Origin: Chloroflexota bacterium
GTDB taxonomy: Bacteria; Chloroflexota; Limnocylindria; Limnocylindrales; CSP1-4
Length of the DNA stretch: 64,000 nt
Reading direction: 5' to 3'
Assembly (NCBI GenBank): GCA_019637815.1
Contig: JAHBUZ010000011.1
Span: forward strand, 18,758-82,757
Below the pieces are notes generated by a model. That model was not told where the DNA came from, searched no databases, and saw only the letters and a program-made list of their open reading frames with translations. Made by a program: the position numbers and the translations under genes. This document shows, piece after piece, positions 24,611 through 43,678 of this stretch (positions are counted from its first letter, which is position 1; every line of letters begins with the position of its first letter).

Positions 24611-25762
24611 ATGGCGCCGTCAAGAGGAAAGACGGGTCAGACCAGTGTCGATCAGGATGCCAGCGTGTCCTCGACCGGCGGATCGCGTCCCGCCACGCTG
24701 CGGGACGTGGCAGCCCATGCGGACGTGGACGTGAGCGTCGTGTCACGGGTCGTCAACGGCGACCCTCGGCTGCGCGTCTCGGACGCGACGAGGGAGCGGG
24801 TCGAACGGTCCCTGCGGATCCTCGACTATCGGCCCAACGTCCAGGCCCGGGGTCTGCGCCTTGCGCGCACCTGGACCATCGGCTTCGTCCTGCCCGACCT
24901 GATGAACCCCTTCTACGCACCGATCGTGGAGGGCGCGGAGCAACGGGCCTCCGAGCTCGGCTACATGGTGGTCATCGTGCGCGAGCTCGATCGGGCGCGG
25001 GCGGACGACCCGGAGCTGGCCTTCGCGCGCCTGCTCCACGAGGACCGCGTGGATGGGCTGCTCGTGGCGTCGGGGCGTGTGGATGACGACGTCCTGCGGA
25101 CGCTCGACCGGGGTCGGCGACCGCTCGTCATCGTCAACCGGCGGGTGCCGGGGGTGGCCGGCAGCGTGGTCGTCGATGACCAGGCCGCCGCAGAGGTCGC
25201 CACGTCGCATCTCATCGACCTCGGCCATCGGCGCCTCGGACATGTGGCCGGACCGTCGGGCATCGACAACACGCTCCGGCGGCACGCAGGGGTGGCTGCC
25301 GCAGCGGCGCGGGGCGGGGCGATGCTCGTCACGGCCCATGGCGAGGGATGGGACCCGGAGTCCGGCCACACCGCGGCACTGCGACTCCTCGCCACACACG
25401 ATGTCACGGGTGTCGTCGCCACCAACATCATCGTGGCCGCCGGCGTCGTCGGCGCGGCGCAGGAGCTCGGTCGACGCGTGCCGGAGGACCTGAGCGTGGT
25501 GGCACTCCACGACTTCCCGGTCGCACCGTTCCTGCGACCATCGCTCACCACCGTCGTCCTGCCCCTGGAGGAGCTGGGACGCCAAGCCGTGGACGAGCTG
25601 ATGTGGCGCCTCGCGGGGAATGCCCGCCGCGAGATCACGATCGCCGGCAGACCGCGACTCGTGCTGCGCGACTCGGCCGGGCCGCCACGCGACGAGGGCG
25701 TCCCGGCGCGCGACCCAGGCGCACGAGCCCTCGATGGCCGACGGGTCAGACCGCGGGGATGA
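24611..25762 (+). CDS. LacI-family transcriptional regulator (paralog 3)
   Basis: HTH sequence TLRDVAAHADVDVSVVSRVVNG plus a sugar-binding domain. ATG at 24611. It converges on the PTE-3 gene with a 17-nt 3' overlap. Confidence 0.8.
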   Translation: MAPSRGKTGQTSVDQDASVSSTGGSRPATLRDVAAHADVDVSVVSRVVNGDPRLRVSDATRERVERSLRILDYRPNVQARGLRLARTWTIGFVLPDLMNPFYAPIVEGAEQRASELGYMVVIVRELDRARADDPELAFARLLHEDRVDGLLVASGRVDDDVLRTLDRGRRPLVIVNRRVPGVAGSVVVDDQAAAEVATSHLIDLGHRRLGHVAGPSGIDNTLRRHAGVAAAAARGGAMLVTAHGEGWDPESGHTAALRLLATHDVTGVVATNIIVAAGVVGAAQELGRRVPEDLSVVALHDFPVAPFLRPSLTTVVLPLEELGRQAVDELMWRLAGNARREITIAGRPRLVLRDSAGPPRDEGVPARDPGARALDGRRVRPRG

Positions 25763-26699
25763 TCGCCCGTCGCGGCTGCTCGATGACGAGGCCGCGCAGC
25801 TCCTCGTCCGTGAGACCGCGCTCCCGGAGCATGCCCATGAAGTCCCGCGGCAGGTAGTCGTAGCCGGTGCCGCCGTAGGCGCGCAGCATCGACAGGGCGC
25901 ACACGTCGTGGGACAGCAGCACCCGGTCCAGGAATCCCCGCCGTCGCGCCTCCAGCAGGTAGCGTACCCGGCGCTCGGGGACGAGCGGCACCCGACCCCG
26001 GATGCAGTCGTACTGGACCCACGCGCCGCGGCGGGCGATCGCCTCGTGGTAGTCCAGGTCGGGATCGGTGTCCGTGTGGCCCACGATGATGCGCTCGGGC
26101 CGGACACCGGCATCCTCGAGGATGTCCAGCTGCGCGATGCCGACCTGGCCGAACCGGGCGTGGAGCGTGATGGGCAGTCCGGTCCGGGCGTGCGCGATGG
26201 CCGCCGCCCGGAGCGTGCGCTCCTCGGCCGGGCTCACGAAGTCGCGGTCCGCGCCCAGCTCCCCGATGATGCCCGGTCGGATGCCGGTGCCATCGACCCC
26301 CTGCTCGATCTCCGCGGTCAGCAGCTCGGCCAGCCCGCGCGTGCTGCGCTCCGCGAACCCCGGCTCGTACCACGGCTCGCGATACCGGCCGCAACCCATG
26401 ACCACGGGCAGGTCGAGCGACTCGGAGACCCGTCGCAGGAACAGCGGGTCCCGGCCCATCCGTGCATCGGTGGTGACATCCACGATCCAGGGACTGCCGG
26501 GCCACCCGGCAGCCTGGACCGCGTCCCGGAACAGGCGCACCTCATCGGTCTGGAGCTCCTCGTCGATGAGCTGGAAGTCGAACGCGAGCATCGCGGCCGG
26601 GAAGACGCTGATGAGGTCGATGCGCAGGTGCTCGTGGGGCAGGCCGAAGCCCAGGGTCGAAGCATCGACGGGCCCCCGGACCGTCATGACCTGGTCCAT
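25746..26699 (-). CDS. phosphotriesterase-family protein (PTE-like lactonase), paralog 3
   Basis: GFGLPHEHL metal motif with a PTE-family core (GIIGELG and others). Confidence 0.8.
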   Translation of the reverse strand: MDQVMTVRGPVDASTLGFGLPHEHLRIDLISVFPAAMLAFDFQLIDEELQTDEVRLFRDAVQAAGWPGSPWIVDVTTDARMGRDPLFLRRVSESLDLPVVMGCGRYREPWYEPGFAERSTRGLAELLTAEIEQGVDGTGIRPGIIGELGADRDFVSPAEERTLRAAAIAHARTGLPITLHARFGQVGIAQLDILEDAGVRPERIIVGHTDTDPDLDYHEAIARRGAWVQYDCIRGRVPLVPERRVRYLLEARRRGFLDRVLLSHDVCALSMLRAYGGTGYDYLPRDFMGMLRERGLTDEELRGLVIEQPRRAIIPAV

Positions 26700-26708
26700 G
26701 GTGCTGCC

Positions 26709-27185
26709 CTACTCGTTGGGCGTGCCGTCGAAGGCCTGCTTCGACGTGATGAACTCCACCCGGATGCCGTCAGGGTCGATCATGTACACCGCGCGGCCAC
26801 CGGTGTTGGGCCCGATGGTCGGCGTGACGGGCGGGTTGACCGATCGGACGCCCTTGGCCACGAGCTCCTCGTACAGGGCGTCACAGTCATCCGTGAAGAA
26901 CGCGAGATGCGCGGTGCCGGGGTTCGCGGTCCGGGTGTCGACGGGCGTCTTCTCGACGTTGCGGTATTCGAGGATCTCCAGGAACACGCCGGTGTCCGCG
27001 GGCATCCGCAGGACCGCCGCGTGGATGTCCGCGTCGGGGTAGCCCACGATGGTCCGGATGTACTCCGCCTGCGGGTTCCACTGGAACACCACCTCGAAGC
27101 CGAGGATGTCGCGATAGAAGGCCAGCGACCGTTCGAGGTCGGCGACCTGGATACCCATGTGATGCGGGCGCGTGATGGTGGGCAT
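26709..27185 (-). CDS. VOC-family protein (glyoxalase/bleomycin-resistance/dioxygenase fold)
   Basis: Start MPTITRPHHMGIQVADLERSLAFYRDILGFEV at 27185 with a GGAGG RBS. The N-terminal 92 codons in the track are out-of-context extension. Confidence 0.7.
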   Translation of the reverse strand: MPTITRPHHMGIQVADLERSLAFYRDILGFEVVFQWNPQAEYIRTIVGYPDADIHAAVLRMPADTGVFLEILEYRNVEKTPVDTRTANPGTAHLAFFTDDCDALYEELVAKGVRSVNPPVTPTIGPNTGGRAVYMIDPDGIRVEFITSKQAFDGTPNE

Positions 27186-27249
27186 CGGGAACCTCCGGAG
27201 TGACGCGACAAGGATGGGAGCGGGAGCGGCGACTGCGGTCGAGGGTGGG

Positions 27250-28398
27250 CTACAGGTCGTCCAGCAGGCCCTGGGTATCGGTGACCTGCGACTGCCGGGC
27301 GATCCACGCAGGGTCGACCAGCACGCCGAAGCCGGGCAGGTCCGGCAGCGGGTCCATGAGGCCATCGCGCACGACGGGCTGCACGAGCGGATCGTCCATG
27401 GGGTGGACGCCCGTGTACGGCACGCCCCATTCGATGGGCACGTCGGTGTGCCCGAGGGCACCCATCACCTGGCTGTGGATGTGGGGATACATGTGGGTCG
27501 AGAGCTGGTTGCCGTGCGCCTTGACCTGCTGGGCGATGCCCCGCAGCCGGGTGATGCCACCGTTGGTGGTGGCGTCCACCCGATTGACGTCCACGGCATC
27601 GAACCTCAGCAGCGCCTGGGGATGGTAGGAACCACCCTGCTCGTCACCCATGGCGACGGGGGTGCTGATGCCCTCGCGGATCTCGCGCACCATCTGGGCG
27701 TCCCCGGGGGGCACGATGTCCTCGAACCAGCCGATGTCCAGCCCGTCCAGCCGCTTCCCGAACTCGATGGCATCCGCGGACGTCTTGTGCAGGAAGTTGG
27801 CGTCGATGCCCAGCCACGCCTCCGGGTACGCCTCGCGGGCCGCCTGGAGCCGGGCGATCGATTCGTCACGCGTGGGCCCGATGGGCAGCTTGAAGCGCCG
27901 CCATCCCTGGTCCCAGAGCGCTGTGATCTGGTCCACGGTCGCCTGCGGGCTGATGCTCGGGGGATAGCCCACGATGCCCGTCACGGGCATGCGCTCCCGA
28001 CCACCCCCCAGATACGCGGTGATGTTCTGACCCGCTGCCTTCGCGGCGAGGTCCCAGGCAGCGCAATCCACGACCGACAGGGCGCGCATGCCGATGCCCG
28101 CCGCGTGGACCGAGTTGTTCGACCAGAGGGCCTTGTGGAACACGGCCTCCGGGTCGGTGATCGGCTCGCCGACGTACTGGGGCGCGATGGTGCGCTCCAC
28201 GATCGCGGCGATGGGGCCATCCCGGGTCAGACCGTAGGCGAAGCCCGTGAGCCCGCTCTCGGCGTCGATGCGCACGAGGAAGAACTCGCGGTGGCGCATG
28301 ATCCAGGTGCCGAAGACGATGGGCACCTCGAGCTCATGCAGGATGGTGACAGCGCGGACACGGACGATGCGATCGACGTCGGGCAACGGGACCTCCAC
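27250..28398 (-). CDS. enolase-superfamily protein (mandelate racemase/muconate-lactonizing-enzyme family; probable sugar-acid dehydratase), paralog 1
   Basis: MR/MLE architecture (N-terminal capping domain, KLPIG motif, metal-binding D/E residues). GTG start at 28398. It is co-linear with paralog 2. Confidence 0.8.
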   Translation of the reverse strand: MEVPLPDVDRIVRVRAVTILHELEVPIVFGTWIMRHREFFLVRIDAESGLTGFAYGLTRDGPIAAIVERTIAPQYVGEPITDPEAVFHKALWSNNSVHAAGIGMRALSVVDCAAWDLAAKAAGQNITAYLGGGRERMPVTGIVGYPPSISPQATVDQITALWDQGWRRFKLPIGPTRDESIARLQAAREAYPEAWLGIDANFLHKTSADAIEFGKRLDGLDIGWFEDIVPPGDAQMVREIREGISTPVAMGDEQGGSYHPQALLRFDAVDVNRVDATTNGGITRLRGIAQQVKAHGNQLSTHMYPHIHSQVMGALGHTDVPIEWGVPYTGVHPMDDPLVQPVVRDGLMDPLPDLPGFGVLVDPAWIARQSQVTDTQGLLDDL

Positions 28399-28439
28399 TT
28401 CACTGGCCTGACCAGTCTAACGACCGGCGGCACCGAGGG

Positions 28440-29258
28440 TCATGCGACGAGATAGCCGTCGTCGCACATGAGCGTATGACCGGTCACCAGCTCCGCGGCA
28501 TCGCTCGCCAGGAAGATCGCGGCGCCCACGAGCTCCCGGGGCAGCCCCAGACGTGGCCGGAGCATCCGCGCCTTGATCCAGTCCGCGGTGATGGAGCTGC
28601 GCTGTGCGGCGGCACGCGTGAGCGGCGAGTCCATGAGCGTGGGGCCGATGCCGTTGACCCGCACCCCACGGTCGCGCCACTCGAGCGCCAGCGCCCGGGT
28701 GACGCCCAGGACCCCGCCCTTCGAGGCGAGATAGGCGCTCGCCCAGGGGTAGGCGATGAACGAGCCGATGGATGCGAGGTTGATGATGCTGCCCTTGCCC
28801 TGGGCAAGCATCTGGCGACCGAATCCCTGGCAGCACAGATAGGTGCCCTTGAGGTTGAGGTCGAGGATGAAGTCGAAGCGATCCTCCGGGAAGTCCTCGG
28901 CCGGGGAGCGGAACGCCGAGCCCGCCGAGTTCACGAGGATGTCCACGCGGCCGTGGTCCTGCACCACGCGGTCGGCGAGTGCGTCCACCTGCTCCTTCGA
29001 GGTGACGTCCAGATGGCTCGCGATCGCGCTGCCACCCTGGGCGGCGATGGTCGCGACCGTCTCCGCGACGCCGTCATCGTTCACATCGGCAACGATGACC
29101 GTGACACCCGCTTGGGCATACCCGACGGAGATGGCCCTGCCGAGCCCGGAGCCACCGCCCGTGACGACCGCCACGCGACCGGCCAGGTCGAACAGGCCCT
29201 GGACATAGCCCGCCGGGATGGTCAGCTCCTCGTCATCCACCGGGCGTTGCTCGGTCAC
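28440..29258 (-). CDS. SDR-family oxidoreductase
   Basis: VAVVTGGGSGLGRA and YLASK motifs. GTG start at 29258 with an AGGAGG RBS 7 nt upstream. Confidence 0.8.
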   Translation of the reverse strand: MTEQRPVDDEELTIPAGYVQGLFDLAGRVAVVTGGGSGLGRAISVGYAQAGVTVIVADVNDDGVAETVATIAAQGGSAIASHLDVTSKEQVDALADRVVQDHGRVDILVNSAGSAFRSPAEDFPEDRFDFILDLNLKGTYLCCQGFGRQMLAQGKGSIINLASIGSFIAYPWASAYLASKGGVLGVTRALALEWRDRGVRVNGIGPTLMDSPLTRAAAQRSSITADWIKARMLRPRLGLPRELVGAAIFLASDAAELVTGHTLMCDDGYLVA

Positions 29259-29560
29259 CGCGACACCTCCTGGTCGGCCCAGCTGGCGGGGTCGTTGGGA
29301 TGGGCGGCGAGCGGATGCACCGTCGCCACGAGATGCGGGAACATGGGCAGCGAGGCGAGCGCGGTGTGCAGCTCGGTCGCGTCCGCCGCGTGCCAGATGC
29401 CCCAGTTGGCGCGCTGGCCGGGGATACGCCAGAGACGCTTGAGCGTGCCGCTCGCGCCGAGCTCGCGGGCGCGCTGACCCTCCGCGGCGATCAGCCGCTG
29501 CTGCTCCTCGGGCGTGATGCCCGCCGGCCAGGTGAACGTGATGTGCACCAGGAAGTCCAT
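29255..29560 (-). CDS. muconolactone delta-isomerase-like small protein
   Basis: About 101 aa. The sequence MDFLVHITFTW...ATELHTALASLPMFPHLVATVHPLAAHP resembles the CatC/MIase fold. ATG at 29560 with a GAGGAG RBS. It overlaps the SDR start by GTGA. Confidence 0.5.
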   Translation of the reverse strand: MDFLVHITFTWPAGITPEEQQRLIAAEGQRARELGASGTLKRLWRIPGQRANWGIWHAADATELHTALASLPMFPHLVATVHPLAAHPNDPASWADQEVSR

Positions 29561-29585: not shown

Positions 29586-30485
29586 TCAGCCGATGCGACC
29601 GGTCCAGGTCGGCAGGCCCGGCTCGCCCAGGGGGATCCGCCACACCTGGCCACCGTAGGATGCGTCCGATGAGTCGGCCAGGACACCCGCATCGGTCATG
29701 ATCAGGTCGGTGCCCTGGAACACGCAGTTGGTGGGGATGACCCCGGCCTTGATGAAGCGGTCATAGCGACCGTCCGGGTGCAGGACATCGATACCGCCGC
29801 CGTTGACGGTCGTCACATACAGCCGGCCGTCCGCGCCCACGGCCAGGCCATCCGCGACGGGCTGCTCACCGGGCAGTCGCGCGATGTCCTCGATGACGCC
29901 CGTGTCGAGGCGCAGCCTGCGGACCATGCCCGTGTACGACTCGGCCCACACCACGCTGCCGTCCGCCTCGATGGCGATGCCGTTCGGGAAGGTCGGCGGA
30001 TCGAGCTCTGCGAGGAGGCTGCCGGACCCATCGGCCTCCAGCACGAACAGGTACGAGGGCTCGGGGTCCGCGGGTCGGTAGGTGCCCGGATCGGTGAAGT
30101 AGAGCCGACCGTCCGGCCCGAACACCAGGTCGTTGGGGCCATGGAACCGCTTGCCATCCAGCTCCGTGGCGATGATGCGTGCCGGGCCACCTTCCGCCTC
30201 GATGACCTGGATCGAGGGCACCGACATCTCCTCCGCACGCCACGGCCCCACCGTGCCCCCGTTCTGGCACACGTACATCGTGCTGCCATCGCCCCGGACG
30301 CACGAGTTGGGTCCGCCGGCCGTGTACGCGTAGCGACTGACGCCCCGACCGCGCTCCCAGACGGAGACCTGGCTGCGATAGCTCTCCACGAAGCAGATCC
30401 GGCCGTCCGGCAGGACGGTCGGGCCCTCCGCCCAGCCGAGCCCCTCGGCGAGCAGCTCATGGGTGACGGGATCGGGTTCGCTCAT
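29586..30485 (-). CDS. SMP-30/gluconolactonase/LRE-family protein, paralog 2
   Basis: Start MSEPDPVTHELLAEGLGWAEGP at 30485, overlapping the permease stop by ATGA. Beta-propeller SGL repeats. Confidence 0.8.
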   Translation of the reverse strand: MSEPDPVTHELLAEGLGWAEGPTVLPDGRICFVESYRSQVSVWERGRGVSRYAYTAGGPNSCVRGDGSTMYVCQNGGTVGPWRAEEMSVPSIQVIEAEGGPARIIATELDGKRFHGPNDLVFGPDGRLYFTDPGTYRPADPEPSYLFVLEADGSGSLLAELDPPTFPNGIAIEADGSVVWAESYTGMVRRLRLDTGVIEDIARLPGEQPVADGLAVGADGRLYVTTVNGGGIDVLHPDGRYDRFIKAGVIPTNCVFQGTDLIMTDAGVLADSSDASYGGQVWRIPLGEPGLPTWTGRIG

Positions 30486-31315
30486 TTCACGGCTCCTGCG
30501 GTGATGCCACGCACGATGTAGCGCTGCACGAACAGCGAGAACACGAAGATGGGGATGATGGTCACGACGCCCACCGTGGCGGCCACGTTCCAGTCGATGG
30601 GTCGCTGCGCGGAGATGAGCCCGGCGGCGCCGAGCGGGATCGTCTTGAGGCTCTGCGAGTTGACGATGTACATGCCGACCAGGAACTCGTTCCAGATGAA
30701 GATGGCCGCGAAGATCGAGGACACGATGAGCCCCGGCCGCACGAGCGGCAGCATGACCGAGGTGAGGACACGGAAGCGGCTGCACCCGTCCACCATCGCG
30801 GCATCATCCAGCTCCCGGGGGATCTCGTCGAAGAAGCCGATGAGGATCCAGATCACGAGCGGCAGGCTGAACGCCACGTACGGGATCACGAGGCCCGGCA
30901 GGGTGTCGTCGAGGTCCAGGAACCGCATCATCAGCAGGATCGGGATGGCCACGGCCACCGCGGGCATGAAGCGCAGGCTCAGGACCGTGTTCGCCCAGCC
31001 GTCCCGACGTCGGAACGGGATGCGCGAGAAGGCATAGGCGGCCGGGGTCGCGACCAGGAGCGCCACGATGACCGTGAGCGTCGTCACCACGATGGAGTTC
31101 AGGGTGTACCCCAGGAATCCCCGGTCGATGAGCACGTTCCGGTAGTTCGAGACGATCTGGTCGATGTCGAAGTCCAGGGTGGGCGGCACCTGGAGGATCT
31201 CGATGCGCGCCTTGGTGGAGAGCAGCAGGATGACCACGAACGGTGCGAACCCGATGATGCCGATGAGCACGAGGAGCAGGTACGCGAACGCCCGCTCGAT
31301 GCGACGCGTGATCAT
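30482..31315 (-). CDS. CUT1-type ABC sugar permease (MalG/UgpE-like)
   Basis: EAA-loop-type permease with six TM helices. The ATG at 31315 overlaps the upstream permease stop by ATGA. The track ORF's 146 N-terminal codons lie in the neighbour gene's other frame. Confidence 0.8.
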   Translation of the reverse strand: MITRRIERAFAYLLLVLIGIIGFAPFVVILLLSTKARIEILQVPPTLDFDIDQIVSNYRNVLIDRGFLGYTLNSIVVTTLTVIVALLVATPAAYAFSRIPFRRRDGWANTVLSLRFMPAVAVAIPILLMMRFLDLDDTLPGLVIPYVAFSLPLVIWILIGFFDEIPRELDDAAMVDGCSRFRVLTSVMLPLVRPGLIVSSIFAAIFIWNEFLVGMYIVNSQSLKTIPLGAAGLISAQRPIDWNVAATVGVVTIIPIFVFSLFVQRYIVRGITAGAVK

Positions 31316-32220
31316 CGAGCGTCCGCCCGGCGCAGCGCGAGACGTGCCGCGAGGACCATGAACGCGACCGTCGCCACGATGACCATCACGTACGAGATCG
31401 CCGACGCGTAGCCGTAGCGCGTGAAGCTGAAGCCGGTCTCCCAGGCGTAGAAGCTGAGCGTGGTGGTGAGCCGGCCCGGACCGCCGTACGTGAGTCCGAA
31501 CACCACGTCGAACGAGCGGAACGCATCGATGGAGCGGAACACGGCCGCGAACGCGATGGCCGGCGCCAGCAGCGGCAGGGTCACCTGGCGCAGGGTCGCG
31601 ATGCGTCCTGCGCCGTCCACGGCGGACGCCTCGAACACGTCGCGGGGCAGCGCCTGGAGTCGTGCGAACACGATGACCATGATGAATGGCGTCCACTGCC
31701 ACGAATCCACGAGGACCAGCGTGACGAGGGCCAGCTTCGGGTCCGCGGTCCACAGTGGCTTGGGCAGGCCCAGCTCGCCCAGCAGCCAGTTGACCATGCC
31801 CCAGTCAGGGTTGAGCAGCGCCCGCCACATGAGCCCCACCACGACCGGGGTCAGCAGCATCGGCAGGATGAGCACGCCCCGCACGAACCACGATCCGCGC
31901 AGGTGGAGGTCGAAGAACAGCGCGAGCGCCGTGCCCAGGACCACCTGGATGGCGATGGACGCGACGACGAGGATGCCGGTGTTGACCGCGGCCTGCCAGA
32001 ACACCGCGTCGCGGGCGAGCATCGCGTAGTTGTCCAGCCCCACGAACGTGAACGAGCTCGTGGTCGGGCTCCAGTCGAAGAAGCTGATGCCCAGGCTGTA
32101 GACGAGCGGGAAGACGGAGAACAGGACGAGATAGGCCGCGGCCGGCGAGATGAGCAGCAGGATGTCCCGCCGCGTGTGCAGCGGGTGCGCGGTGCGCATC
32201 GGTGGGGTCGTGGTCGTCAC
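31312..32220 (-). CDS. CUT1-type ABC sugar permease (MalF/UgpA-like)
   Basis: Typical MalF-type topology and motifs (ALPRDVFEASAVDGAG). Confidence 0.8.
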   Translation of the reverse strand: MTTTTPPMRTAHPLHTRRDILLLISPAAAYLVLFSVFPLVYSLGISFFDWSPTTSSFTFVGLDNYAMLARDAVFWQAAVNTGILVVASIAIQVVLGTALALFFDLHLRGSWFVRGVLILPMLLTPVVVGLMWRALLNPDWGMVNWLLGELGLPKPLWTADPKLALVTLVLVDSWQWTPFIMVIVFARLQALPRDVFEASAVDGAGRIATLRQVTLPLLAPAIAFAAVFRSIDAFRSFDVVFGLTYGGPGRLTTTLSFYAWETGFSFTRYGYASAISYVMVIVATVAFMVLAARLALRRADAR

Positions 32221-32307: not shown

Positions 32308-33777
32308 TCACTCGGCCAGGTGGCCACCCGCCTTGAGGATCGTCTCGGCCGCGGCCTGGGCGTTGGCCATCGCCGTCTCGGCGTCCTGGGCACCCGTGAG
32401 CGCGAGGTTGATCTCCCGGGCCACGGCACCCACGACCTCGAAGGCCTCGGGGATGGTCGCGACCTCCAGGATCTGGGCGCTCTCGATGGCACCGACGGCC
32501 GCGGGGATGTACGGCAGCGCCGCGACGATCTCCGGGTCCGAGCCGGTGGAGATGCGGTTCGGGTCCGTCTGGTAGGTCATGACCTGGTACTTCTCGAACT
32601 CCTTCGAGGTGATCTGGGTCAGGAGCAGCCAGGCGCAGTCCTTGTTCTCCTGGGGCAGGTTCTTCGCGATGCCCAGGCCCCAGCCACCGCGGACACCCCG
32701 CGGGTTGCCGTCCTCGGCAGGCATCGGCGCCACCGCGACGGTGTCCTTGACCGGGGAGTCGGGACCGTACAGCGCGCCTGCGATGGTCGCCCACGCCGGC
32801 CACATCGCGACACGACCGGTCATGAACGCGTCCATGGCCTCCGTGAAGCCGTAGCTGGTCACCGCGGCCGGCGAGGACGGCAGCAGGTCGATCATGTTCT
32901 GGAGCGCCGCGACGGCCTCCGGGCTGGTGAGGTTGGTGTTGAGCGTCTGGTCCGCCTTGCTGCCCGTGGTCAGCTGGCCGCCCATGGTGATGAAGCGGCT
33001 GTACCAGTCCACCAGGAAGCCGGAGACATCGTTGGCGCCCACCATGGCGCTGCCGGCGACGTCATCGGTCGTCAGCTGCTGCGCGGTCGCGAGGTACTCC
33101 GCCCAGGTCGTGGGCACGGGCGGCTGGCCCTCACCACCCAGCAGGTCGCTGCGATAGAACAGCAGCACGGAGCCGCTGTGGATGCCCGGGATGAGGTACA
33201 GCTGGTCACCGCCGAACTCACCGGACTCGACATCGAAGTAGCCGGTGTACTCCAGCTGGCCGGCCGGGAAGTCCGCGAAGTCGTAGTCCGCGGGGGTCTT
33301 GGACGCGTCGTTCAGGTACGGCGTCAGCTCCTCGAGGAGCCCGGCGCCCGCCGTCCCCGCCACGTTGAAGCCGATGGTGTGGATGATGTCGAACGCCGAC
33401 TCCGGCGCACGCAGGTTCTGGGCGAGCGACTCGTTCAGCTGGCCGAGCGCCATCGTGGTGAGCTGGATGTCGATGCCGGTCGCGGCCTCGATCTCCGCCT
33501 CCTTGTCGCGCAGGCCGAAGTCGTCCCGCTCGCCATCCACGAGGGCGATACGCACGACCTTGCCGGCGCACGCCATGGGGTCGAACGTGCCACCGGACTG
33601 GGCGCTCACGGTGGCGAACGACAGGCTGGAAGCGGCCACGACGCCGCCGATGCCCAGCGCGCTCAACCGTGCCACGGAGGAACGGCGACGCCGTCCCCCC
33701 GACACCCGATGGCGAGCTGGCGAGCGTCCGGCCCCGCTGGCCGGGGTCACGTGATCCACGACGAGTTCCTCCTCCAT
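32308..33777 (-). CDS. CUT1 extracellular solute-binding protein (family 1)
   Basis: Twin-arginine/Sec-type signal (RRRRSSVARLSALGIGGVVAASSLSFATVSAQS) followed by SBP_bac_1-like domains. Start at ATG 33777 is uncertain. Confidence 0.75.
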   Translation of the reverse strand: MEEELVVDHVTPASGAGRSPARHRVSGGRRRRSSVARLSALGIGGVVAASSLSFATVSAQSGGTFDPMACAGKVVRIALVDGERDDFGLRDKEAEIEAATGIDIQLTTMALGQLNESLAQNLRAPESAFDIIHTIGFNVAGTAGAGLLEELTPYLNDASKTPADYDFADFPAGQLEYTGYFDVESGEFGGDQLYLIPGIHSGSVLLFYRSDLLGGEGQPPVPTTWAEYLATAQQLTTDDVAGSAMVGANDVSGFLVDWYSRFITMGGQLTTGSKADQTLNTNLTSPEAVAALQNMIDLLPSSPAAVTSYGFTEAMDAFMTGRVAMWPAWATIAGALYGPDSPVKDTVAVAPMPAEDGNPRGVRGGWGLGIAKNLPQENKDCAWLLLTQITSKEFEKYQVMTYQTDPNRISTGSDPEIVAALPYIPAAVGAIESAQILEVATIPEAFEVVGAVAREINLALTGAQDAETAMANAQAAAETILKAGGHLAE

Positions 33778-33921: not shown

Positions 33922-34431
33922 TCAGGGTGCGCCGATCCTCGCGGGTCGGCGCGCGACCGGGCGATCCACCTCGTCGACGACCGCGACCACGCGCCCGGTC
34001 TGATCGAGGCCGGTGATGGTCCGCGTCACCAGCCCGACGTCCGCCCGGGGGCCCTCGCGGACCACCTCGATGCGCGACTCGGCGACCAGGGTGTCGCCCG
34101 CCACCACGGGACCCGTCAGTCGGATCGATCGCCAGCCCGTGGCCCGCGTCGCGGCGGCCACCGATGGCGGCGGCACGGCGGGCTCGGCGAGCCCGATGAC
34201 GATCGCGGCGGTCAGCGCACCCAGCACGAGCGGCTCCCCGAACGCTCCCTGCGCGGCGGCATGCCGGTCGCCGTGGACGTCGCTCACGTTGTGGGTGACC
34301 CAGGCGAGCCAGACATGCTCCGAGTCATCGAGCGTCCGGCCATGCGCATGACGGATGACCACCCCCGGGACGGCGTCCTCGAACCACCAGCCGGTGTCGG
34401 CGCCCGCGATCACACGAGTCCCTGGCGCCAT
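33922..34431 (-). CDS. MaoC-like (hot-dog fold) dehydratase/hydratase, paralog 2
   Basis: Clear paralog of the MaoC protein at 43103..43669 (shared blocks GWWFEDAV..., VAGDTLVAESRIEVV). Start at ATG 34431 (alternative TTG 34455). Confidence 0.7.
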   Translation of the reverse strand: MAPGTRVIAGADTGWWFEDAVPGVVIRHAHGRTLDDSEHVWLAWVTHNVSDVHGDRHAAAQGAFGEPLVLGALTAAIVIGLAEPAVPPPSVAAATRATGWRSIRLTGPVVAGDTLVAESRIEVVREGPRADVGLVTRTITGLDQTGRVVAVVDEVDRPVARRPARIGAP

Positions 34432-34447
34432 CGCCGACCCGTCCGGG

Positions 34448-35587
34448 TCAGCCAAGGTCCGCGAGGATCCCGACCGGGTCGTCGTGGGGCTGGCTGCGCA
34501 CCCAGTCGATATCGACCATGTGACCGAAGCCCGGCAGCTCGGGGAGTGGCGCCATCAGCCCGCCATCGAGGATCACGGGCTGGGGCAAGGGGTCGTCCAT
34601 CGGGTGGACACCCGTGTCCGGGATACCCCACTCGATGGGTCGGTCGGCGTATCCCAGCGCAGCGAGGACCTGGCTGTGGACGTGCGGGAACATGTGGGGC
34701 GCGAAATCGAGACCCGCAGCGAGCGCCTGGTCGATGACCCGCCGACCGCGCGTCAGACCGCCCATGCAGGTGAGGTCGACCCGCACGACATCCACGGCGC
34801 CGGCCGCGATGAGGGCCTCCGGGAAGTAGCTGCCGCCCTGCTCATCGCCCATCGCGATGGGCACCTCGATGCGGTCGCGGAGCTGTCGCAGGATCCCCGC
34901 GTCCCCGGGCGGGAAGATGTCCTCGAACCAGCCCAGGCCCACGTCCGGGATGGACTCGATGAAGCTGGCCGCCGTCTCCACGTCCTCGTAGACCCACGCG
35001 GCGTCCATGCCCAGCCACGCGTCGGGTGCTGCGGCACGTGCCGCCCGCAGGCGCGCGGCGCTCCGCTCGGCGGCACCACCGATGGGTGCCTTGAAGCGGC
35101 GCCAGCCGGCCGCATACAGCACCGCGGTCTGGGCGCCGGTCTCCTCGGGCCCCATGGTGCCCGGCGGGTAGCCGATGATCGCGGTCGCTGGCATCGGCTC
35201 GTTGTGACCGCCGAGCAGGCCCGCGATGGACAGGTCACGCAGCTTCGCAGCGGCATCCCAGCAGGCGAGGTCCACGATGGACAGGGCACGCAGCCCGATG
35301 CCCGCCGCGTGCGATGCCAGGCTCCGACGCCATGCGACCGTGAACGTCCGCTCCCGGTCATCGATGGTCGTGCCCACGTACAGCGCCGCGATCGTCTTGC
35401 GGATCTGCTCCGCGACCGCGCCGTCACGGGTGAGCGTGTACATCAGGCCATCGACGCCCCGGTCGGTGCGCACCCGCACGAGCGCGAACTCGCGAGAGCG
35501 CATGATCCACTCGCCGAAGATGACCGGCGCGGGGAGCTGGGCCTGGATGGTCATCACGTCCACGGACGTGATGGTCGCGCTGGTCAT
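34448..35587 (-). CDS. enolase-superfamily protein (MR/MLE family; probable sugar-acid dehydratase), paralog 2
   Basis: Start MTSATITSVDVMT at 35587 with a GGAGGA RBS. Co-linear with paralog 1 (FGEWIMRSREF, KAPIG, MGDEQGGSY). Confidence 0.8.
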   Translation of the reverse strand: MTSATITSVDVMTIQAQLPAPVIFGEWIMRSREFALVRVRTDRGVDGLMYTLTRDGAVAEQIRKTIAALYVGTTIDDRERTFTVAWRRSLASHAAGIGLRALSIVDLACWDAAAKLRDLSIAGLLGGHNEPMPATAIIGYPPGTMGPEETGAQTAVLYAAGWRRFKAPIGGAAERSAARLRAARAAAPDAWLGMDAAWVYEDVETAASFIESIPDVGLGWFEDIFPPGDAGILRQLRDRIEVPIAMGDEQGGSYFPEALIAAGAVDVVRVDLTCMGGLTRGRRVIDQALAAGLDFAPHMFPHVHSQVLAALGYADRPIEWGIPDTGVHPMDDPLPQPVILDGGLMAPLPELPGFGHMVDIDWVRSQPHDDPVGILADLG

Positions 35588-35621
35588 GGGTCCTCCGGAG
35601 ACAGCGGGTGACGGAGCGCGC

Positions 35622-36449
35622 TCAGGCGCCCTCGTGGATCTGGGTCGAGCCGGCGCTGCTGGCCCAGGCGCCCTGGGCCAGGAAGCCACCATCGACGGCG
35701 AGATAGCCGCCGGTCATGAAGCTGGAGCGGTCGCTGGCCAGGAACAGCGTGGCCTGCGCGATGTCCTCCGGCAGGCCGAGACGGCCGAGCGGGTGGAAGG
35801 CGCCATAGCGTGCGAGCGTCGCATCGAGGTCGCCGCCCTCCGCGCGCGCCGCGGTCCGGACCATCTCCGAGTCCATGGTGCCCGGACAGATGGCGTTCAC
35901 ACGGATGCCGTCCCGCGCATAGTCGAGGGCCATGTTGCGGGTGAGCGAGAGCACGCCGCCCTTGCTCGCCGCGTACGAGGGGACGCCGGGCATCGACTGG
36001 ACACCCTGGACGCTCGCCATATTGATGACCGAGCCACCCGGTCCCTGCGCCCGGATGTGGGGCAGGGCGTACTTGGACATCAGGAACTGGCCCTTCAGGT
36101 TGACCCCCAGGATGCGATCCCAGACCTCCTCGGGGGTGTCCTCGACGCGGAAGTACCAGTCGACGGGCTGGATGCCCGCGTTGTTGACGAGCACGTCGAG
36201 CCGACCGAAGGCGGTGACCGTCTCGGCCACCATCCGCTGGGCATCCCCGGACGACGAGACATCGCCGATGGTCGCGATGGCTCGCACGCCGCCCGCTGCC
36301 AGCTCTGCCGCCAGGCGCTCCGCGGCGGCCCGGTCCACGTCCGCGATGGCGACCGACGCGCCTTCGCGCGCGAACGCTCGCACGATGCCCTGGCCGATGC
36401 CCAGGGCTCCACCGGTCACCAGGACGGCCCGGCCGTCGAACTCTCCCAT
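35622..36449 (-). CDS. SDR-family oxidoreductase
   Basis: AVLVTGGALGIGQG and YAASK motifs. ATG at 36449 with a GGAGG RBS. Confidence 0.8.
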   Translation of the reverse strand: MGEFDGRAVLVTGGALGIGQGIVRAFAREGASVAIADVDRAAAERLAAELAAGGVRAIATIGDVSSSGDAQRMVAETVTAFGRLDVLVNNAGIQPVDWYFRVEDTPEEVWDRILGVNLKGQFLMSKYALPHIRAQGPGGSVINMASVQGVQSMPGVPSYAASKGGVLSLTRNMALDYARDGIRVNAICPGTMDSEMVRTAARAEGGDLDATLARYGAFHPLGRLGLPEDIAQATLFLASDRSSFMTGGYLAVDGGFLAQGAWASSAGSTQIHEGA

Positions 36450-36469
36450 GTCAGCCTCCGGCGCCATGT

Positions 36470-37411
36470 TCAGTCTCCGATCTCGTCACGGGTGGGGTGG
36501 AAGAGCGGCTTGCCGACGAGCCCGGGGACCCGGAACCGGGTCACGTGCCAGCGCCCGATGTTGGGGGTCAGGATGACGTCCCGGTCGGGACCTGCGAACA
36601 CCACGTTGGTGGGTGCGGCCAGTGCGGTCCCCTCGGGGTCGTGGGCCAGCACCTGGAGCCCCAGGTCCGCACGCCAGCGATACACGACATCGGGCCGGTA
36701 GCACGCGATGACCACCGAGCCGTCCGTGGCGAAGGCGACGCCGTCGGGCACCGTGCCCGGCAGCTCCACCAGGAGCCGCCGTGGCCCCGCCGAGCCATCG
36801 GGCAGGATGTCGAACGCGACCAGCGCCCCGGGCGTGGACTCGAGGACCCATATCTCCTGGCCGTTCGGGTGGACCGCGAGACCGTTCGGGAAGTCCCGGC
36901 TCTCCCGGGTCCAGACGCTGGTGCGCTCCGTGGCAGGGCCGGCACCCGGCCGCACCACGATCACGCTGCCGTCCGGCTGCTTCCAGTGACCGGAGTCGGT
37001 GACATAGAAGCTGCCATCGGGCCCGAACGCGCCCCAGTTGGGTGTCACGAACGGGATGCCGGGTGCGCCGCTGGTCCAGGGAACGGGGTCCCCGCCACCG
37101 GGTGTCCAGCGCATGACCGCGCCGCGCTTGGGGTCACAGGCGTAGACACGCCCCTCCCCGTCCGTGGCGAGGCCCAGGGTCCAGCCGCCGGTCGTGGTCA
37201 CCTCGTGCGCGGTGCCGTCCTCGTCCACCCGGTAGATCTGGCCCTGCTCGCCGCTGACGTAGATGGTGCCGTCGGGCGCGACGCAGATCCCCTCCGCATG
37301 GTCGATACCCGCGGCGATCTGCTCCAGTGCGTCGAGCGCGATGATCGGCTCCATGGCTCCTCCCACCCGCCACCCGGGCTCGGCTGCGCGGTCCACGACG
37401 TGGCGACTCAT
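36470..37411 (-). CDS. SMP-30/gluconolactonase/LRE-family protein, paralog 3
   Basis: SGL beta-propeller repeats. The ATG at 37411 overlaps the permease stop by ATGA (alternative start MEPIIALD at 37354). Confidence 0.8.
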   Translation of the reverse strand: MSRHVVDRAAEPGWRVGGAMEPIIALDALEQIAAGIDHAEGICVAPDGTIYVSGEQGQIYRVDEDGTAHEVTTTGGWTLGLATDGEGRVYACDPKRGAVMRWTPGGGDPVPWTSGAPGIPFVTPNWGAFGPDGSFYVTDSGHWKQPDGSVIVVRPGAGPATERTSVWTRESRDFPNGLAVHPNGQEIWVLESTPGALVAFDILPDGSAGPRRLLVELPGTVPDGVAFATDGSVVIACYRPDVVYRWRADLGLQVLAHDPEGTALAAPTNVVFAGPDRDVILTPNIGRWHVTRFRVPGLVGKPLFHPTRDEIGD

Positions 37412-38241
37412 TGCTTGACCGCCCCCTCCGCCACGCCACGCTCGAACTGGCGGTGGAGCACCAGGTACAGGATGAACACAGGCACGGCCGCCATCAACAC
37501 CGCAGCGGCCACCAACTCGTGGGGCGTGCTGTACTGACCGATGAACTGGGCGATGCCGACCGGCAGGGTATACGTGCCCGCATCACGGAGCAGCACCAGC
37601 GCCAGGAAGTAGTCGTTCCAGCAGAACAGGAACGTCAGGATCGCGACCGTCGCGATCGGTGCCTTCGCGAGCGGCACGACGACGCCCAGGAGGATCCAGC
37701 GCTCCGAGGCCCCATCGATGCGGGCCGCCTCCAGGAGCTCCCGTGGGATCCCCGCGAAGAAGCTCCGCAGGATGAGGATGGACAGCGGCAGGCCGAACGC
37801 GACATAGACCAGGGACAGGCCGACGTGCGTGTCGTAGAGGCCCATCGTCCGGATCTCCACGAACAGCGGGATGATGACCGCCGCGGGCGGGATCATGAGC
37901 CCCAGGAGGATGAGCAGGAACAGCACCTCCGACCCCCGGAACCGGAGCCGGGCGAAGCCGTAGGCGGCGAGGACGCTCAGGGTGACCACGACGGCGACGG
38001 AGAGGCCCGTCACGACGATGCTGTTGAGGAACAGGCGCGCGAGACCGAACTGGCCCCATGCATCGGAGAAGTTCTCCGGCCGGAACGTGCCCGGGATGAC
38101 CGCCCGTGAGTAGACGTCCGCGCCGGTCCGGAGGGCGAGGCCCACGATCCACAGGATGGGCGCCATCGCCACCATCGCCGAAGCCAGCAGGAACGCGGAG
38201 ACACCGACCCGCCACGCCGGGTGCGTATAGCGGTCGATCAT
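37408..38241 (-). CDS. CUT1-type ABC sugar permease (MalG-like)
   Basis: EAA loop (RIDGASERW) with six TM helices. Confidence 0.8.
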   Translation of the reverse strand: MIDRYTHPAWRVGVSAFLLASAMVAMAPILWIVGLALRTGADVYSRAVIPGTFRPENFSDAWGQFGLARLFLNSIVVTGLSVAVVVTLSVLAAYGFARLRFRGSEVLFLLILLGLMIPPAAVIIPLFVEIRTMGLYDTHVGLSLVYVAFGLPLSILILRSFFAGIPRELLEAARIDGASERWILLGVVVPLAKAPIATVAILTFLFCWNDYFLALVLLRDAGTYTLPVGIAQFIGQYSTPHELVAAAVLMAAVPVFILYLVLHRQFERGVAEGAVKQ

Positions 38242-38283
38242 GGGTGGATCTCCGGCGGTTCGGCACGGCCACCCACGCGATGG

Positions 38284-39210
38284 TCATTCATGGAGACGCG
38301 ACCCCCAGCGGATGCGCAGCACGGCCGCGCCCACCGACAACGCCACGATGACCAGCGCGATGGCCGATGCGTAGCCCATGTCGCTGAACTTGAAGGCCTG
38401 CTCGTACATGTAGGTCGCCAGCACCTCCGTGCTCCGGTTGGGTCCGCCGCGGGTCATGACGTACACCAGGTCGAACACGCGCAGACCACCGATGACGTTG
38501 AGCAGGATTGCGGTGCCGATGACCGGATACAGACCGGGCACGACCACGTGGCGGATGCTGGCACGGGCGCCCGCCCCGTCGATGGATGCCGCCTCGAGCT
38601 GGTCGCGTGGCAGGTTCTGGAGACCGGCGTAATAGAGCAGCATGTTGTAGCCCGTGAACTGCCACACCGTGGCCACGATCACGGACGTCAGCGCGAGGTC
38701 AGGGTCACCCAGGAACAGCGTCGGTCGGGCCGTGGGGCTCACGAGCGAGATGAGCTGGTTGACGGCCCCGAACGCATCCAGGATGCGGGTCCACATGAGC
38801 GCCACGATCACGGGTGACAGGAGGACCGGCAGGAACAGCACGGACTTCACCAGGCCGCTGCCACGCACCCGCGACGCGATGAGCAGCGCGTAGAGGAAGC
38901 CCGTGATGTTCAGGAGCACCGTGGTCGCCACGGTGAACAGGATCGTGTGTGTGAACGAGCGCCAGAACACCGGGTCCGCGGCGGCCTTCTGGAACTTGGC
39001 GAGGCCCACGAAGGTCCAGTCGCCGATGCGGAAGCCCGCCCACTCCAGGAACGCGATGCCCGCTACCGCGAACACCGGCACCATCAGGAACAGGCAGAAG
39101 ATGATGACGCTGGGCAGCACGAAGGCGAGCCCGAGCCGGCCGGGTGTGACCGACCGACGAGGACTCGCGATCGACGCGGTCACGGATGGTCGCGGTGATG
39201 CGGCTGCCAT
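38284..39210 (-). CDS. CUT1-type ABC sugar permease (MalF-like)
   Basis: MalF-type topology (NLPRDQLEAASIDGAG). Confidence 0.8.
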   Translation of the reverse strand: MAAASPRPSVTASIASPRRSVTPGRLGLAFVLPSVIIFCLFLMVPVFAVAGIAFLEWAGFRIGDWTFVGLAKFQKAAADPVFWRSFTHTILFTVATTVLLNITGFLYALLIASRVRGSGLVKSVLFLPVLLSPVIVALMWTRILDAFGAVNQLISLVSPTARPTLFLGDPDLALTSVIVATVWQFTGYNMLLYYAGLQNLPRDQLEAASIDGAGARASIRHVVVPGLYPVIGTAILLNVIGGLRVFDLVYVMTRGGPNRSTEVLATYMYEQAFKFSDMGYASAIALVIVALSVGAAVLRIRWGSRLHE

Positions 39211-39243
39211 CCGGATACCGGTGTGGTGGTCGGTGGCGGATGC

Positions 39244-40539
39244 CTACTGCGCGCCGGCCGAGACCATCGCCTCGATGACCGTGCTGCCGGGCTGTCCGTC
39301 CATGACGCCCTGCATCGCGTTCAGCAGCTCCGCGTAGACCTGCGTCGTGTAGATGACGCGGCTGTTGGCGGTGGCCTGCGCGGTCACCATGTTGTTGTAC
39401 AGCTCGCTCTTGTCCGCGGGCACCGGGAAGTCCCAGGACGGGATGAAGTCGTTGGCGACGAGCGCGGCGCCGCCGCCATCGTCCACGAGGTAGCGCAGGA
39501 ACTCGATCGCCTCCTCCTGGTGGGCGCAGTCAGCCGTGACCACGAACATCTCGGCGATGCCGCCCGTGGCCCGGTTGTCGAGCGTGCTGCCGTCCGGCTT
39601 GGGGAACGGGAACAGACTCCACTCGAAGGCATCGCCCACCTTGTCCGCGACGCCCGCCGTGACGAAGTTGCCGACCGGGTACATCATCCCGGCGGCTCCG
39701 CTTGCGAACAGGTCGAGGTTGCCCACGAACGCGTCCATGGAGTTGGCGCCGGGCGCGAAGATGCCACTCGCGACCATGGCGGCCACGTTGTCCGCCGCGG
39801 CAGCGAAGGCCGGGTCATCCCAGCCGACCTCGCCGGCATCCGCCTGCGCGAGCTTGCTGTTGGTGCCGTCCGTGTAGGCCACCTGGGCGAAGAACAGGTC
39901 GCCCGCGGACCACCGGTCCCGGGTGCCCATGGCGATGCCGAACAGGCCCTGCTCACCCAGCGCATCCACGGCGGCCTGGAGCTCACCCTGTGTCTGGGGG
40001 ACCTCCAGGCCCAGCTCGTCGAACCGGGTCTTGTTGTAGGCGATCTGGAGCGTGTTCACGTCCAGGGGGATCGCCCAGACCTCGCCGCCGATGCTCACCG
40101 CGTCCACGATGGGCTCGAAGAACGCCGGGAAACCGGTGGTGATCGCCTGGGTCAACGGGATCAGCTCGCCACTGTTCACGAAGTCCCGGAACTCGCCGGC
40201 CCACGGGATCTGGGCGATGCAGGGTGGCTCATCCGCCGCGATCGCGGCTCGGAACCGCGTCAGGTAGTCGGTGAAGCTCAGGTAGATGACGCCGCATGCG
40301 TCACCACAGTTCGACTGGCCACGCTTCACCGTGACGCCCGGATGGTCCGCCTCGAAACGCACGATGGCGTCCTCGTGGACCAGGGGGTACGCGCCTTCGT
40401 TGTTCCAGGACCACATCTCCAGCTCGATGGGGTCCTGCGCGTTCGCCGCGGGGGTCACGGCCAAGGTCCCCACCAGGACCGTGCCCATGACGAATGCCGA
40501 CCGCCGCCGGGTCGTACTGCCGTGTGTCCGCCTTGCCAT
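39244..40539 (-). CDS. CUT1 extracellular solute-binding protein (family 1)
   Basis: Start MARRTHGSTTRRRSAFVMGTVLVGTLAVTPAANAQD at 40539 with a GAGGAGG RBS 7 nt upstream. Signal peptide plus an SBP_bac_1-like domain. Confidence 0.8.
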   Translation of the reverse strand: MARRTHGSTTRRRSAFVMGTVLVGTLAVTPAANAQDPIELEMWSWNNEGAYPLVHEDAIVRFEADHPGVTVKRGQSNCGDACGVIYLSFTDYLTRFRAAIAADEPPCIAQIPWAGEFRDFVNSGELIPLTQAITTGFPAFFEPIVDAVSIGGEVWAIPLDVNTLQIAYNKTRFDELGLEVPQTQGELQAAVDALGEQGLFGIAMGTRDRWSAGDLFFAQVAYTDGTNSKLAQADAGEVGWDDPAFAAAADNVAAMVASGIFAPGANSMDAFVGNLDLFASGAAGMMYPVGNFVTAGVADKVGDAFEWSLFPFPKPDGSTLDNRATGGIAEMFVVTADCAHQEEAIEFLRYLVDDGGGAALVANDFIPSWDFPVPADKSELYNNMVTAQATANSRVIYTTQVYAELLNAMQGVMDGQPGSTVIEAMVSAGAQ

Positions 40540-43669: not shown

Positions 43670-43678
43670 CCTCCGGCG

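Follow-up and report, generated by a model that had tools for sequence, protein, structure and literature searches.

Within a 64 kb stretch (70% GC; here called the window) of a metagenome-assembled genome (MAG) of Candidatus Limnocylindria (Chloroflexota; contig JAHBUZ010000011.1), two adjacent gene modules, A and B, show the same succession of a CUT1-type ATP-binding cassette (ABC) transporter, an SMP-30 family lactonase-like protein, a short-chain dehydrogenase (SDR) and a mandelate racemase (MR)-like member of the enolase superfamily. These modules are likely to be two parallel upper-pathway units of a mosaic island, each based on one of two anciently diverged enolase paralogs, the A type and the B type. 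An earlier note on this DNA had described the pair as the product of a tandem segmental duplication followed by divergence. Duplication with divergence stands for the enolases, as an ancient event that probably included the SDR, whereas the idea that the entire operon was copied in tandem is not supported.

The region 25746-40539 consists of 16 co-directional genes on the minus strand, with intergenic gaps of no more than 140 nucleotides (nt) and several overlaps of 4-8 nt; third-position GC analysis shows a single uninterrupted run of minus-strand genes from approximately 20.3 to 40.5 kb. Module A starts with a CUT1 solute-binding protein (SBP; 39244..40539; SBP_bac_1, E=1e-21; the start is uncertain, the open reading frame, ORF, being open to 40815), followed by a MalF-like permease (38284..39210) and a MalG-like permease (37408..38241), both of the BPD_transp_1 family, a beta-propeller lactonase-like protein (A_SMP30; 36470..37411), a glucose-1-dehydrogenase-like SDR (A_SDR; 35622..36467; adh_short_C2) and the enolase of the A-type clade (A_ENO; 34448..35590). 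Next comes a hot-dog hydratase (A_MaoC; 33922..34455; MaoC_dehydratas), which falls outside the span 34448-40539 that had been said to include it. Module B comprises the SBP (32308..33777; SBP_bac_1, E=4e-27; start uncertain, ORF open to 33852), MalF-like (31312..32220) and MalG-like (30482..31330) permeases of the same BPD_transp_1 family, a gluconolactonase-like lactonase (B_SMP30; 29586..30485), a small protein of the muconolactone isomerase (MIase) family (29255..29560), an SDR that NCBIfam models place near GolD/DthD, KduD or Gno (B_SDR; 28440..29258), the enolase of the B-type clade (B_ENO; 27250..28386), a VOC/glyoxalase-fold protein (26709..27164; PF00903) and a lactonase-like protein of the phosphotriesterase (PTE) family (B_PTE; 25746..26699). 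Both enolases contain the MR_MLE_N capping and MR_MLE_C barrel domains. Pfam bears out each of the previous family assignments in both modules, along with the MIase, VOC and PTE genes of module B, and the gene content, order and co-direction are real, with six families following each other in the same order on one strand.

The similarity between the partners, assessed by BLASTP and phmmer, is uneven across these six pairs, decreasing from 52% identity to none. The enolases are 52% identical (405 phmmer bits), followed by the SDRs (41%, 147 bits), MalF (38%, 171 bits), MalG (36%, 114 bits) and SMP-30 (28%, 33-38 bits), and for the SBPs phmmer gives no match even at E<10. The values for SMP-30, SDR, MalF and MalG are what is ordinarily seen between unrelated members of such large families; the MalG score, in particular, falls within the 99-137 bits of unrelated CUT1 permeases in other loci. 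At the DNA level, a dot-plot and repeat search over 25-41 kb detected only patches of 55-143 nt at 74-78% similarity, all within the enolase genes and at a constant offset of approximately 7.2 kb, and no segmental repeat beyond them. The description of the paired proteins as clearly paralogous is accordingly true of the enolases alone, because the scores of the other five pairs are low (28-41% or no match) and the DNA patches are restricted to the enolases. Half of the shared gene order, SBP-MalF-MalG, is the canonical one of any CUT1 operon.

An enolase-based scan of GTDB species representatives yielded 70 loci (denoted by L-numbers below), in which ORFs were classified by phmmer with the window proteins as seeds. 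All genes of the six pairs except A_SDR have a nearer homologue in Actinomycetota than their partner in the window. For module B, identity to the actinobacterial proteins is 65-75% for SMP-30 (75% with the acI homologue), 66-76% for the SDR, 54-60% for MalF (acI and Ilumatobacteraceae), 59-63% for MalG, 48-61% for the SBP and 55-62% for the enolase; for module A, it is 50-56% for SMP-30, 53% for MalF, 56% for MalG, 55% for the SBP (Acidimicrobiales, L074) and 50-70% for the enolase. A_SDR has no actinobacterial orthologue among the loci compared, its best matches there being 41-44% identical and none nearer than B_SDR; it is nevertheless closer to proteins of solved structure (203 bits to 4dqx, 200 to 5itv) than to B_SDR (147 bits). 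In none of the pairs are the partners nearer to each other than to homologs from other sources, an outcome that the earlier note itself had set against its duplication. B_SMP30 (29586-30485) is 75% identical to its homologue in an acI-type locus (L045, 14524-15411), yet the adjoining B_ENO is only 55% identical to its counterpart; this uneven divergence within one cluster hints at inter-phylum transfer or gene-by-gene replacement.

Each enolase is represented by more than 120 clusters (90% identity) in other MAGs at 73-94% identity. A 'Chloroflexi bacterium' MAG encodes a protein with 100% identity to B_ENO; the near homologues of B_ENO come from Candidatus Limnocylindria/Limnocylindrales MAGs, and in the locus scan B_ENO shows 63-67% identity to Acidimicrobiia homologues. 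In a neighbor-joining (NJ) tree of 102 subfamily sequences and outgroups, the core clades of the A and the B type are sister groups with a bootstrap of 93/100 apiece, and the A+B assemblage is separated from the outgroups with 83/100. Together with the 52% identity, this identifies A_ENO and B_ENO as genuine paralogs of one narrow subfamily. Both clades include Chloroflexota, Nanopelagicales-type Actinomycetota and Acidimicrobiia, and in 27 loci (10 of Chloroflexota and 17 of Actinomycetota) an A-type and a B-type enolase are found together within at most 21 kb. Because each clade spans both phyla and 27 loci carry both types, the duplication must be ancient and precede the spread over the two phyla, and the two descendants have since travelled together in one neighbourhood. 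An operon duplication specific to the lineage of the window is at odds with these two-phylum clades and with the 17 actinobacterial loci in which both types co-occur. In a first tree, built from 50%-cluster representatives, A and B seemed not to be sisters (0/100), but only because the interleaved representatives are actinobacterial sequences that themselves belong to these two clades; that tree is superseded by the larger, genome-based one.

The SDRs tell a related story. A_SDR scores 248 bits against the NCBIfam model NF005559 'glucose 1-dehydrogenase', above the cut-off of 215 and the sole NCBIfam model passed; the best families for B_SDR are different ones (GolD/DthD, KduD and Gno-like). 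B_SDR is always encoded directly upstream of the B-type enolase and forms a clade, with 100/100 support, with SDRs encoded beside A-type enolases of Acidimicrobiales, Gaiellales and Solirubrobacterales. The Limnocylindria A_SDR constitutes a separate, Limnocylindria-only clade (100/100), and its link to the clade containing B_SDR is unsupported (13/100). These groupings are most simply read as an old duplication of an SDR-enolase cassette, after which the SDR of the A cassette was replaced in Limnocylindria. Thus, the enolase gene was duplicated long ago, most likely together with the SDR upstream of it, before dissemination over Chloroflexota and Actinomycetota.

The other components of the modules have different histories. 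The nearest paralog of A_SMP30 in the window is a third SMP-30 gene (C_SMP30; 16920..17762, minus strand; SGL), at 204 bits and 42% identity vs 33 bits to B_SMP30. The PDB matches of A_SMP30 are designed propellers only; B_SMP30 matches the lactonases 8djf and 7ris with 77 bits, above its score with A_SMP30. Both proteins are predicted lactonases on the basis of the SGL domain (PF08450; 72 bits for A_SMP30 and 99 for B_SMP30 vs a cut-off of 26.3). The CUT1 core of one SBP_bac_1 and two BPD_transp_1 proteins is present in both modules, and the PDB matches of the two SBPs are almost disjoint: oligosaccharide binders 4g68 and 3vxb for A_SBP (87 and 57 bits) and MalE3/TMBP for B_SBP (90-100 bits). 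Ligands taken from these matches (xylo- or chito-oligosaccharide for A, maltose or trehalose for B) were rejected because, at 87-100 bits, the similarity is too remote for such an assignment. For A_MalF, at least 120 database clusters, with proteins of Gemmatimonas and Gaiellales among them, show 49-100% identity, vs only 38% for B_MalF. Neither module encodes an ABC_tran protein, and in the part of the window that was surveyed, the only ATPases are those of two CUT2 systems. In MsiK-type systems, a shared ATPase is encoded elsewhere, and we take this to be the case for both CUT1 importers. Thus, the CUT1 transporters, the SMP-30 lactonases and the A-module SDR of Limnocylindria are not co-duplicates but represent different subfamilies and were added, replaced or lost separately.

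The layouts of the relatives are in line with such a history. The usual order in Limnocylindria is (SMP30_A)-SDR_A-ENO_A-MaoC followed by module B, that is, SBP_B-MalF-MalG-SMP30_B-(MIase)-SDR_B-ENO_B-VOC-(PTE)-CoA-transferase-LacI (L008, L009, L013, L017, L019, L023, L029, L040, L052 and L058). In L004 and L012, MaoC is joined directly to MIase-SDR_B-ENO_B, without the B transporter and the B lactonase; in L003, L052, L065 and L076, the A cassette is not preceded by a transporter of the A type; and in L001, the B core occurs in the absence of module A. Between MaoC_A and SBP_B, the nearest relative (L068/L028 on CAZYTQ010000001.1, positions 1-11585 and 1-6066, respectively; B_ENO 96% and A_ENO 94% identical) has eight additional genes, namely an opposite-strand CUT1 system, an SDR, a C-type SMP-30, two SDRs and a VOC protein; the junction of modules A and B is an insertion hot spot. 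The acI-type clusters follow the order CoA-transferase< MaoC< ENO_A> LacI-VOC-MIase-E1beta-E1alpha, then SDR_B-ENO_B-SBP_B-MalF-MalG-SMP30_B-SMP30_A-SDR, with one transporter per two enolases. Enolase cassettes in the relatives are thus accompanied by one, two or no CUT1 transporters, and therefore the collinear appearance of the window, with two transporters, is one configuration among many.

Two side observations concern these relatives. An extra pair of genes, for an SDR and a cytochrome P450, is located between the CUT1 permeases and SMP30_A in L004 (6158-8178), L055 and L071; such a pair in A-type modules is unexpected for a simple sugar pathway. Loci labelled as Bifidobacterium breve (L043) and as Betaproteobacteria and Alphaproteobacteria MAGs (L046, L053) carry actinobacterial-type clusters; the gene order of L046 and L053 is, gene for gene, that of the Nanopelagicales/acI loci L045 and L047, L043 is arranged otherwise, and all three contigs are probably mis-binned or mislabelled.

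Altogether, an ancient duplication of the enolase, probably with the SDR, followed by mosaic assembly is well supported. It is unlikely that the whole module (transporter, lactonase, SDR and enolase) was duplicated before the spread between the phyla, with subsequent extreme divergence and gene-by-gene replacement erasing the signal in the SBPs and SMP-30 proteins. Such an event would account for the same order of both types of SMP30-SDR-ENO cassettes in Actinomycetota (L059, L074 and L033), for the sister-group relationships of the enolases and of the actinobacterial partner SDRs, and for the A/B MalF score, which is slightly above those of the few unrelated CUT1 permeases (116-139 bits). However, B_SMP30 is nearer to gluconolactonases in the PDB than to A_SMP30, the SBPs match disjoint PDB subfamilies, the MalG score is at the family background, and the acI-type clusters contain both enolases with a single CUT1 system. 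A single tandem segmental duplication of the full SBP-MalF-MalG-SMP30-SDR-enolase operon in this lineage, with MIase, VOC, PTE and MaoC added afterwards, would explain the two adjacent, co-directional modules of six families in one order, the 52% identity of the enolases and their DNA patches at a constant offset, but is very improbable given the SBPs without detectable similarity, an A_SMP30 far nearer to the third copy than to its partner, the closer homologues in another phylum for every gene but A_SDR, the enolase clades that each span two phyla and the relatives whose cassettes lack one or both transporters. The modules resemble textbook tandem operon duplications, which are recent and identical at the DNA level, in being adjacent, co-directional and collinear, and differ from them in the lack of a DNA-level repeat, the uneven divergence and the existence of closer relatives outside each pair. 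Their identical order is due in part to the canonical grammar of operons and in part to convergence.

Both enolases contain the motifs FG.WIMR.REF and MGDEQGGSY that had been quoted for them, and their catalytic residues can be mapped to mandelate racemase numbering. Both enolases have the acidic residues D195, E222 and D248, the last with E249 next to it, at the metal-ligand positions of the aligned 5olc and 4ggb, which in the MR subgroup are at the ends of strands beta3, beta4 and beta5; these residues do not vary within the subfamily. Both also have the predicted His-Asp dyad H298-D271 (beta7/beta6), which is invariant across the subfamily at positions assigned by alignment, and K166 is retained in both proteins. 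The KxK motif at the end of beta2, present as K-x-K in 5olc and 4ggb, is not found in either enolase: the sequence is K166-L/A-P168, with a proline that is nearly invariant across the subfamily. The pertinent comparison is with acid-sugar enzymes of the MR subgroup, namely L-talarate/galactarate dehydratase (2pp0), the 3,6-anhydro-galactonate cycloisomerases (5olc, 5xd7), galactarolactone cycloisomerase (4ggb) and the L-rhamnonate and L-fuconate dehydratases. The subfamily shares with them the two-domain MR_MLE fold, the three acidic metal ligands, the His-Asp dyad and the context of a dehydrogenase and a lactonase, and differs from them in its distance from the solved structures, in equivalog scores below cut-off and in KxP.

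The accessory genes of the modules are conserved to different degrees. The MIase protein is a full-length member of its family (PF02426, 101.6 bits vs a cut-off of 26.7, E=2.8e-29), with a score of 68.3 against the TIGR03221 equivalog (cut-off 130.6), and so is probably not a functional muconolactone isomerase; it recurs near the B-type enolase in both phyla. VOC is a near-universal downstream neighbour of the B-type enolase, and the arrangement ENO_B-VOC(-CoA-transferase) is found in most loci. B_PTE (PF02126, 193.5 bits vs 22.4) falls below the cut-offs of the PHP equivalog NF007373 (185 vs 486) and of OPH (105 vs 500), and a PTE gene is present in L001, L009 and L028 and absent from L003, L004, L008 and L012. 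MaoC follows ENO_A in most Limnocylindria relatives (L003, L004, L005, L008, L009, L012 and others); the best NCBIfam match of A_MaoC is the RipB/Ich enoyl-CoA hydratase, at 76 bits and below cut-off.

The two modules are part of a mosaic island of approximately 40 kb for the catabolism of carbohydrates and lactones. On the downstream side, module B is parted from a CUT2 operon by a gene for a LacI-family regulator (24593..25762, plus strand; LacI and Peripla_BP_3 by Pfam, supported by the frame plot and translation) that is convergent with B_PTE, with a 3' overlap of approximately 16 nt, and divergent from the CUT2 operon; a simple third-position GC filter missed this gene because the antisense ORF is also open. 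Beyond it are found a CUT2 ABC system, an SDR, RidA, a 474-amino-acid protein, a second PTE (17854-18930, minus strand; 112 bits and 35-40% identity to B_PTE), C_SMP30, a LacI protein and a second CUT2 system and, further downstream, a DUF4432-like ORF (~9.7-12 kb), two SDRs, a family III CoA-transferase (6808..8076, minus strand; PF02515, E=4e-109) and another LacI protein. In most relatives, the family III CoA-transferase directly follows ENO_B-VOC. The 474-amino-acid protein (seed 'U480'; 18927-20351, minus strand) has no Pfam match and is kept after RidA or VOC in many relatives, with scores of 620-1030 bits in L001, L013, L014, L015 and L028.

Upstream of A_SBP, a divergent operon on the plus strand (40626..44611) encodes, according to Pfam, lipoyl, E2, CitE/HpcH-like, MaoC and PfkB proteins, and the same divergent arrangement is present in L001, L004, L052, L065 and L076. 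The lipoyl-domain ORF (40626-41054) and the ORF for the catalytic domain of a 2-oxoacid-dehydrogenase E2 component (40891-41808) overlap in different frames. A frameshifted E2 gene at 40626-41808 was considered and rejected: a natural split is more likely because relatives such as L004 carry the lipoyl and catalytic domains as separate genes. No E1 subunits were detected by phmmer in the window; actinobacterial and some Limnocylindria clusters have E1alpha and E1beta. The remaining genes (41805-44611) encode a CitE/HpcH-like lyase (which also matches DUF6986 and the TIM barrel of malate synthase), a mesaconyl-CoA-hydratase-like MaoC protein and a PfkB sugar or keto-deoxy-acid kinase. Together with the CoA-transferase at 6808-8076, this set resembles itaconate- or citramalyl-CoA-type chemistry.

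With respect to function, the suggestion of the earlier note that the modules act on related but distinct sugar acids or lactones stays the most plausible one. By analogy with known routes, the most likely scheme consists of two parallel oxidative, non-phosphorylative upper pathways, probably for two related but distinct aldoses or aldonolactones, that would converge on a shared CoA-dependent lower pathway. Each CUT1 system would import a sugar or lactone, energized by an ATPase encoded elsewhere; the SDR would oxidize the sugar to a lactone, and the SMP-30 (or PTE) lactonase would open the ring. The MR-type enolase would then dehydrate the sugar acid to a 2-keto-3-deoxy acid, presumably by means of the His298-Asp271 dyad, Lys166 and Mg2+ bound by D195, E222 and D248, with Pro168 in place of the second lysine of KxK. 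Since B_SDR resembles KduD and gluconate 5-dehydrogenase, it may alternatively oxidize the keto-deoxy product. The ENO_B-VOC-CoA-transferase trio, along with the MaoC and CitE-like genes, suggests that the products enter a CoA-dependent lower pathway for which VOC, the family III CoA-transferase, MaoC, the CitE/HpcH-like lyase, the split E2 with its lipoyl protein and PfkB are candidates. Given that some loci contain a single enolase type, each cassette can apparently work alone.

The gene set in question (A and B enolases, VOC, MIase, CoA-transferase, MaoC, CitE-like lyase and parts of a 2-oxoacid dehydrogenase) is conserved in Limnocylindria, Nanopelagicales (acI-type), Acidimicrobiia and Gaiellales/Solirubrobacterales. 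It might constitute an undescribed route for sugar acids or lactones in which the 2-keto-3-deoxy acid made by the KxP enolase would be processed through CoA thioesters, and not by an aldolase or the Weimberg pathway, with both enolases perhaps required for a single class of substrates; we regard this as a tentative idea of low probability. Even less likely, both enolases could belong to one pathway for one substrate, in which, for example, an epimerase or cycloisomerase step precedes dehydration by the second enzyme, or the two form a hetero-oligomer. The lasting linkage of the two types in the 27 loci of two phyla would then be accounted for, and the acI clusters with both enolases, two lactonases and one transporter agree with it, as do the cycloisomerases of sugar acids or lactones (5olc, 4ggb and 5xd7) among the top PDB matches. 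Nevertheless, in many loci and on large contigs, the B core (SDR_B-ENO_B-VOC-CoA-transferase) or an A-type cassette occurs alone (e.g., L001, L018, L024-L031 and L070-L077), and both enzymes retain the same full catalytic set.

The degradation of a non-sugar lactone or ring-cleavage product by a beta-ketoadipate-like route, with the enolase as a cycloisomerase followed by MIase, a lactone hydrolase (SMP-30 or PTE), CoA-transferase, hydratase and lyase, is improbable. The genuine MIase-family protein, the three SMP-30 and two PTE lactonase-type genes, VOC, the CoA-transferase and the P450 in the A module of some relatives would fit this route; in contrast, the enolases score only 41-45 bits against the muconate cycloisomerase model (cut-off 335), the transporters are of the carbohydrate CUT1 and CUT2 types, the regulators belong to the LacI family, and A_SDR passes the glucose-1-dehydrogenase subfamily model. 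This route is down-weighted because the catalytic residues are of the MR type, with the His-Asp dyad and no MLE-type lysine in beta6.

Among known systems, parallel non-phosphorylative pathways for sugars, lactones and sugar acids that are based on paralogs of enolase (COG4948) and SDR (COG1028) have been proposed for the SAR202 Chloroflexota (Lim et al., 2023; PMC10444878), and the enolase/SDR paralog pattern of the window fits this theme, already known in the phylum. Both cases share the phylum, the pairing of an MR-type enolase with an SDR, ancient, deep-branching paralogs and the proposed oxidation without phosphorylation. Unlike SAR202, the class here is Limnocylindria, with isolate labels of related MAGs that hint at freshwater or soil (unverified); SAR202 shows a genome-wide expansion of enolases, whereas only two are encoded in the window; and the SMP-30 and PTE lactonases and the CoA-transferase, MaoC, CitE-like and E2 genes set the present system apart from the SAR202 scheme.

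The De Ley-Doudoroff and Weimberg-Dahms operons are similar in combining a dehydrogenase, an SMP-30-type lactonase (e.g., XylC) and a dehydratase, with the ABC importer adjacent and PfkB nearby. However, no IlvD/EDD dehydratase, KDPG-type aldolase, KdxD or KGSADH was identified here, and MIase, VOC, PTE, MaoC and the CoA-transferase are foreign to those pathways. A literature search on Limnocylindria and lactonases, and on clusters of enolase, MIase and lactonase, found nothing specific.

Several points weigh against the overall reading of a mosaic island with two parallel modules. With respect to origin, the support for the entire A clade decreases to 55/100 once the basal Acidimicrobiales and Gaiellales are included, the trees are NJ trees with limited sampling and the loci were picked via the enolase itself, and fast-evolving SBPs and lactonases could in principle conceal a common origin. 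With respect to transcription units, a scan for consensus promoters and terminators gave background-level matches and nothing at the junction of the modules. With respect to function, the best matches of the enolases to solved structures, with 5olc, 4ggb and 5xd7 among the top ones, reach only E ~1e-25, and no NCBIfam enolase equivalog, ManD and AraD included, comes near its cut-off (TalrD/GalrD, 116 vs 500; RhamD, 62 vs 393; GalD, 60 vs 311), the subfamily being an uncharacterised one; it is guesswork to give MIase, VOC, PTE, MaoC and the CoA-linked genes a part in a sugar pathway.

More generally, the two modules serve as a caution that operons with the same layout and similar protein families can look like a segmental duplication without being one. 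What the analysis has delimited is a narrow enolase subfamily that consists of two sister clades, with KxP instead of KxK, and resides in a conserved neighbourhood in Limnocylindria and several groups of Actinomycetota, some of which are labelled as freshwater lineages. If the substrates of this subfamily are identified, they would show which compounds are eaten by these mostly uncultured bacteria and would add new functions to the enolase superfamily.

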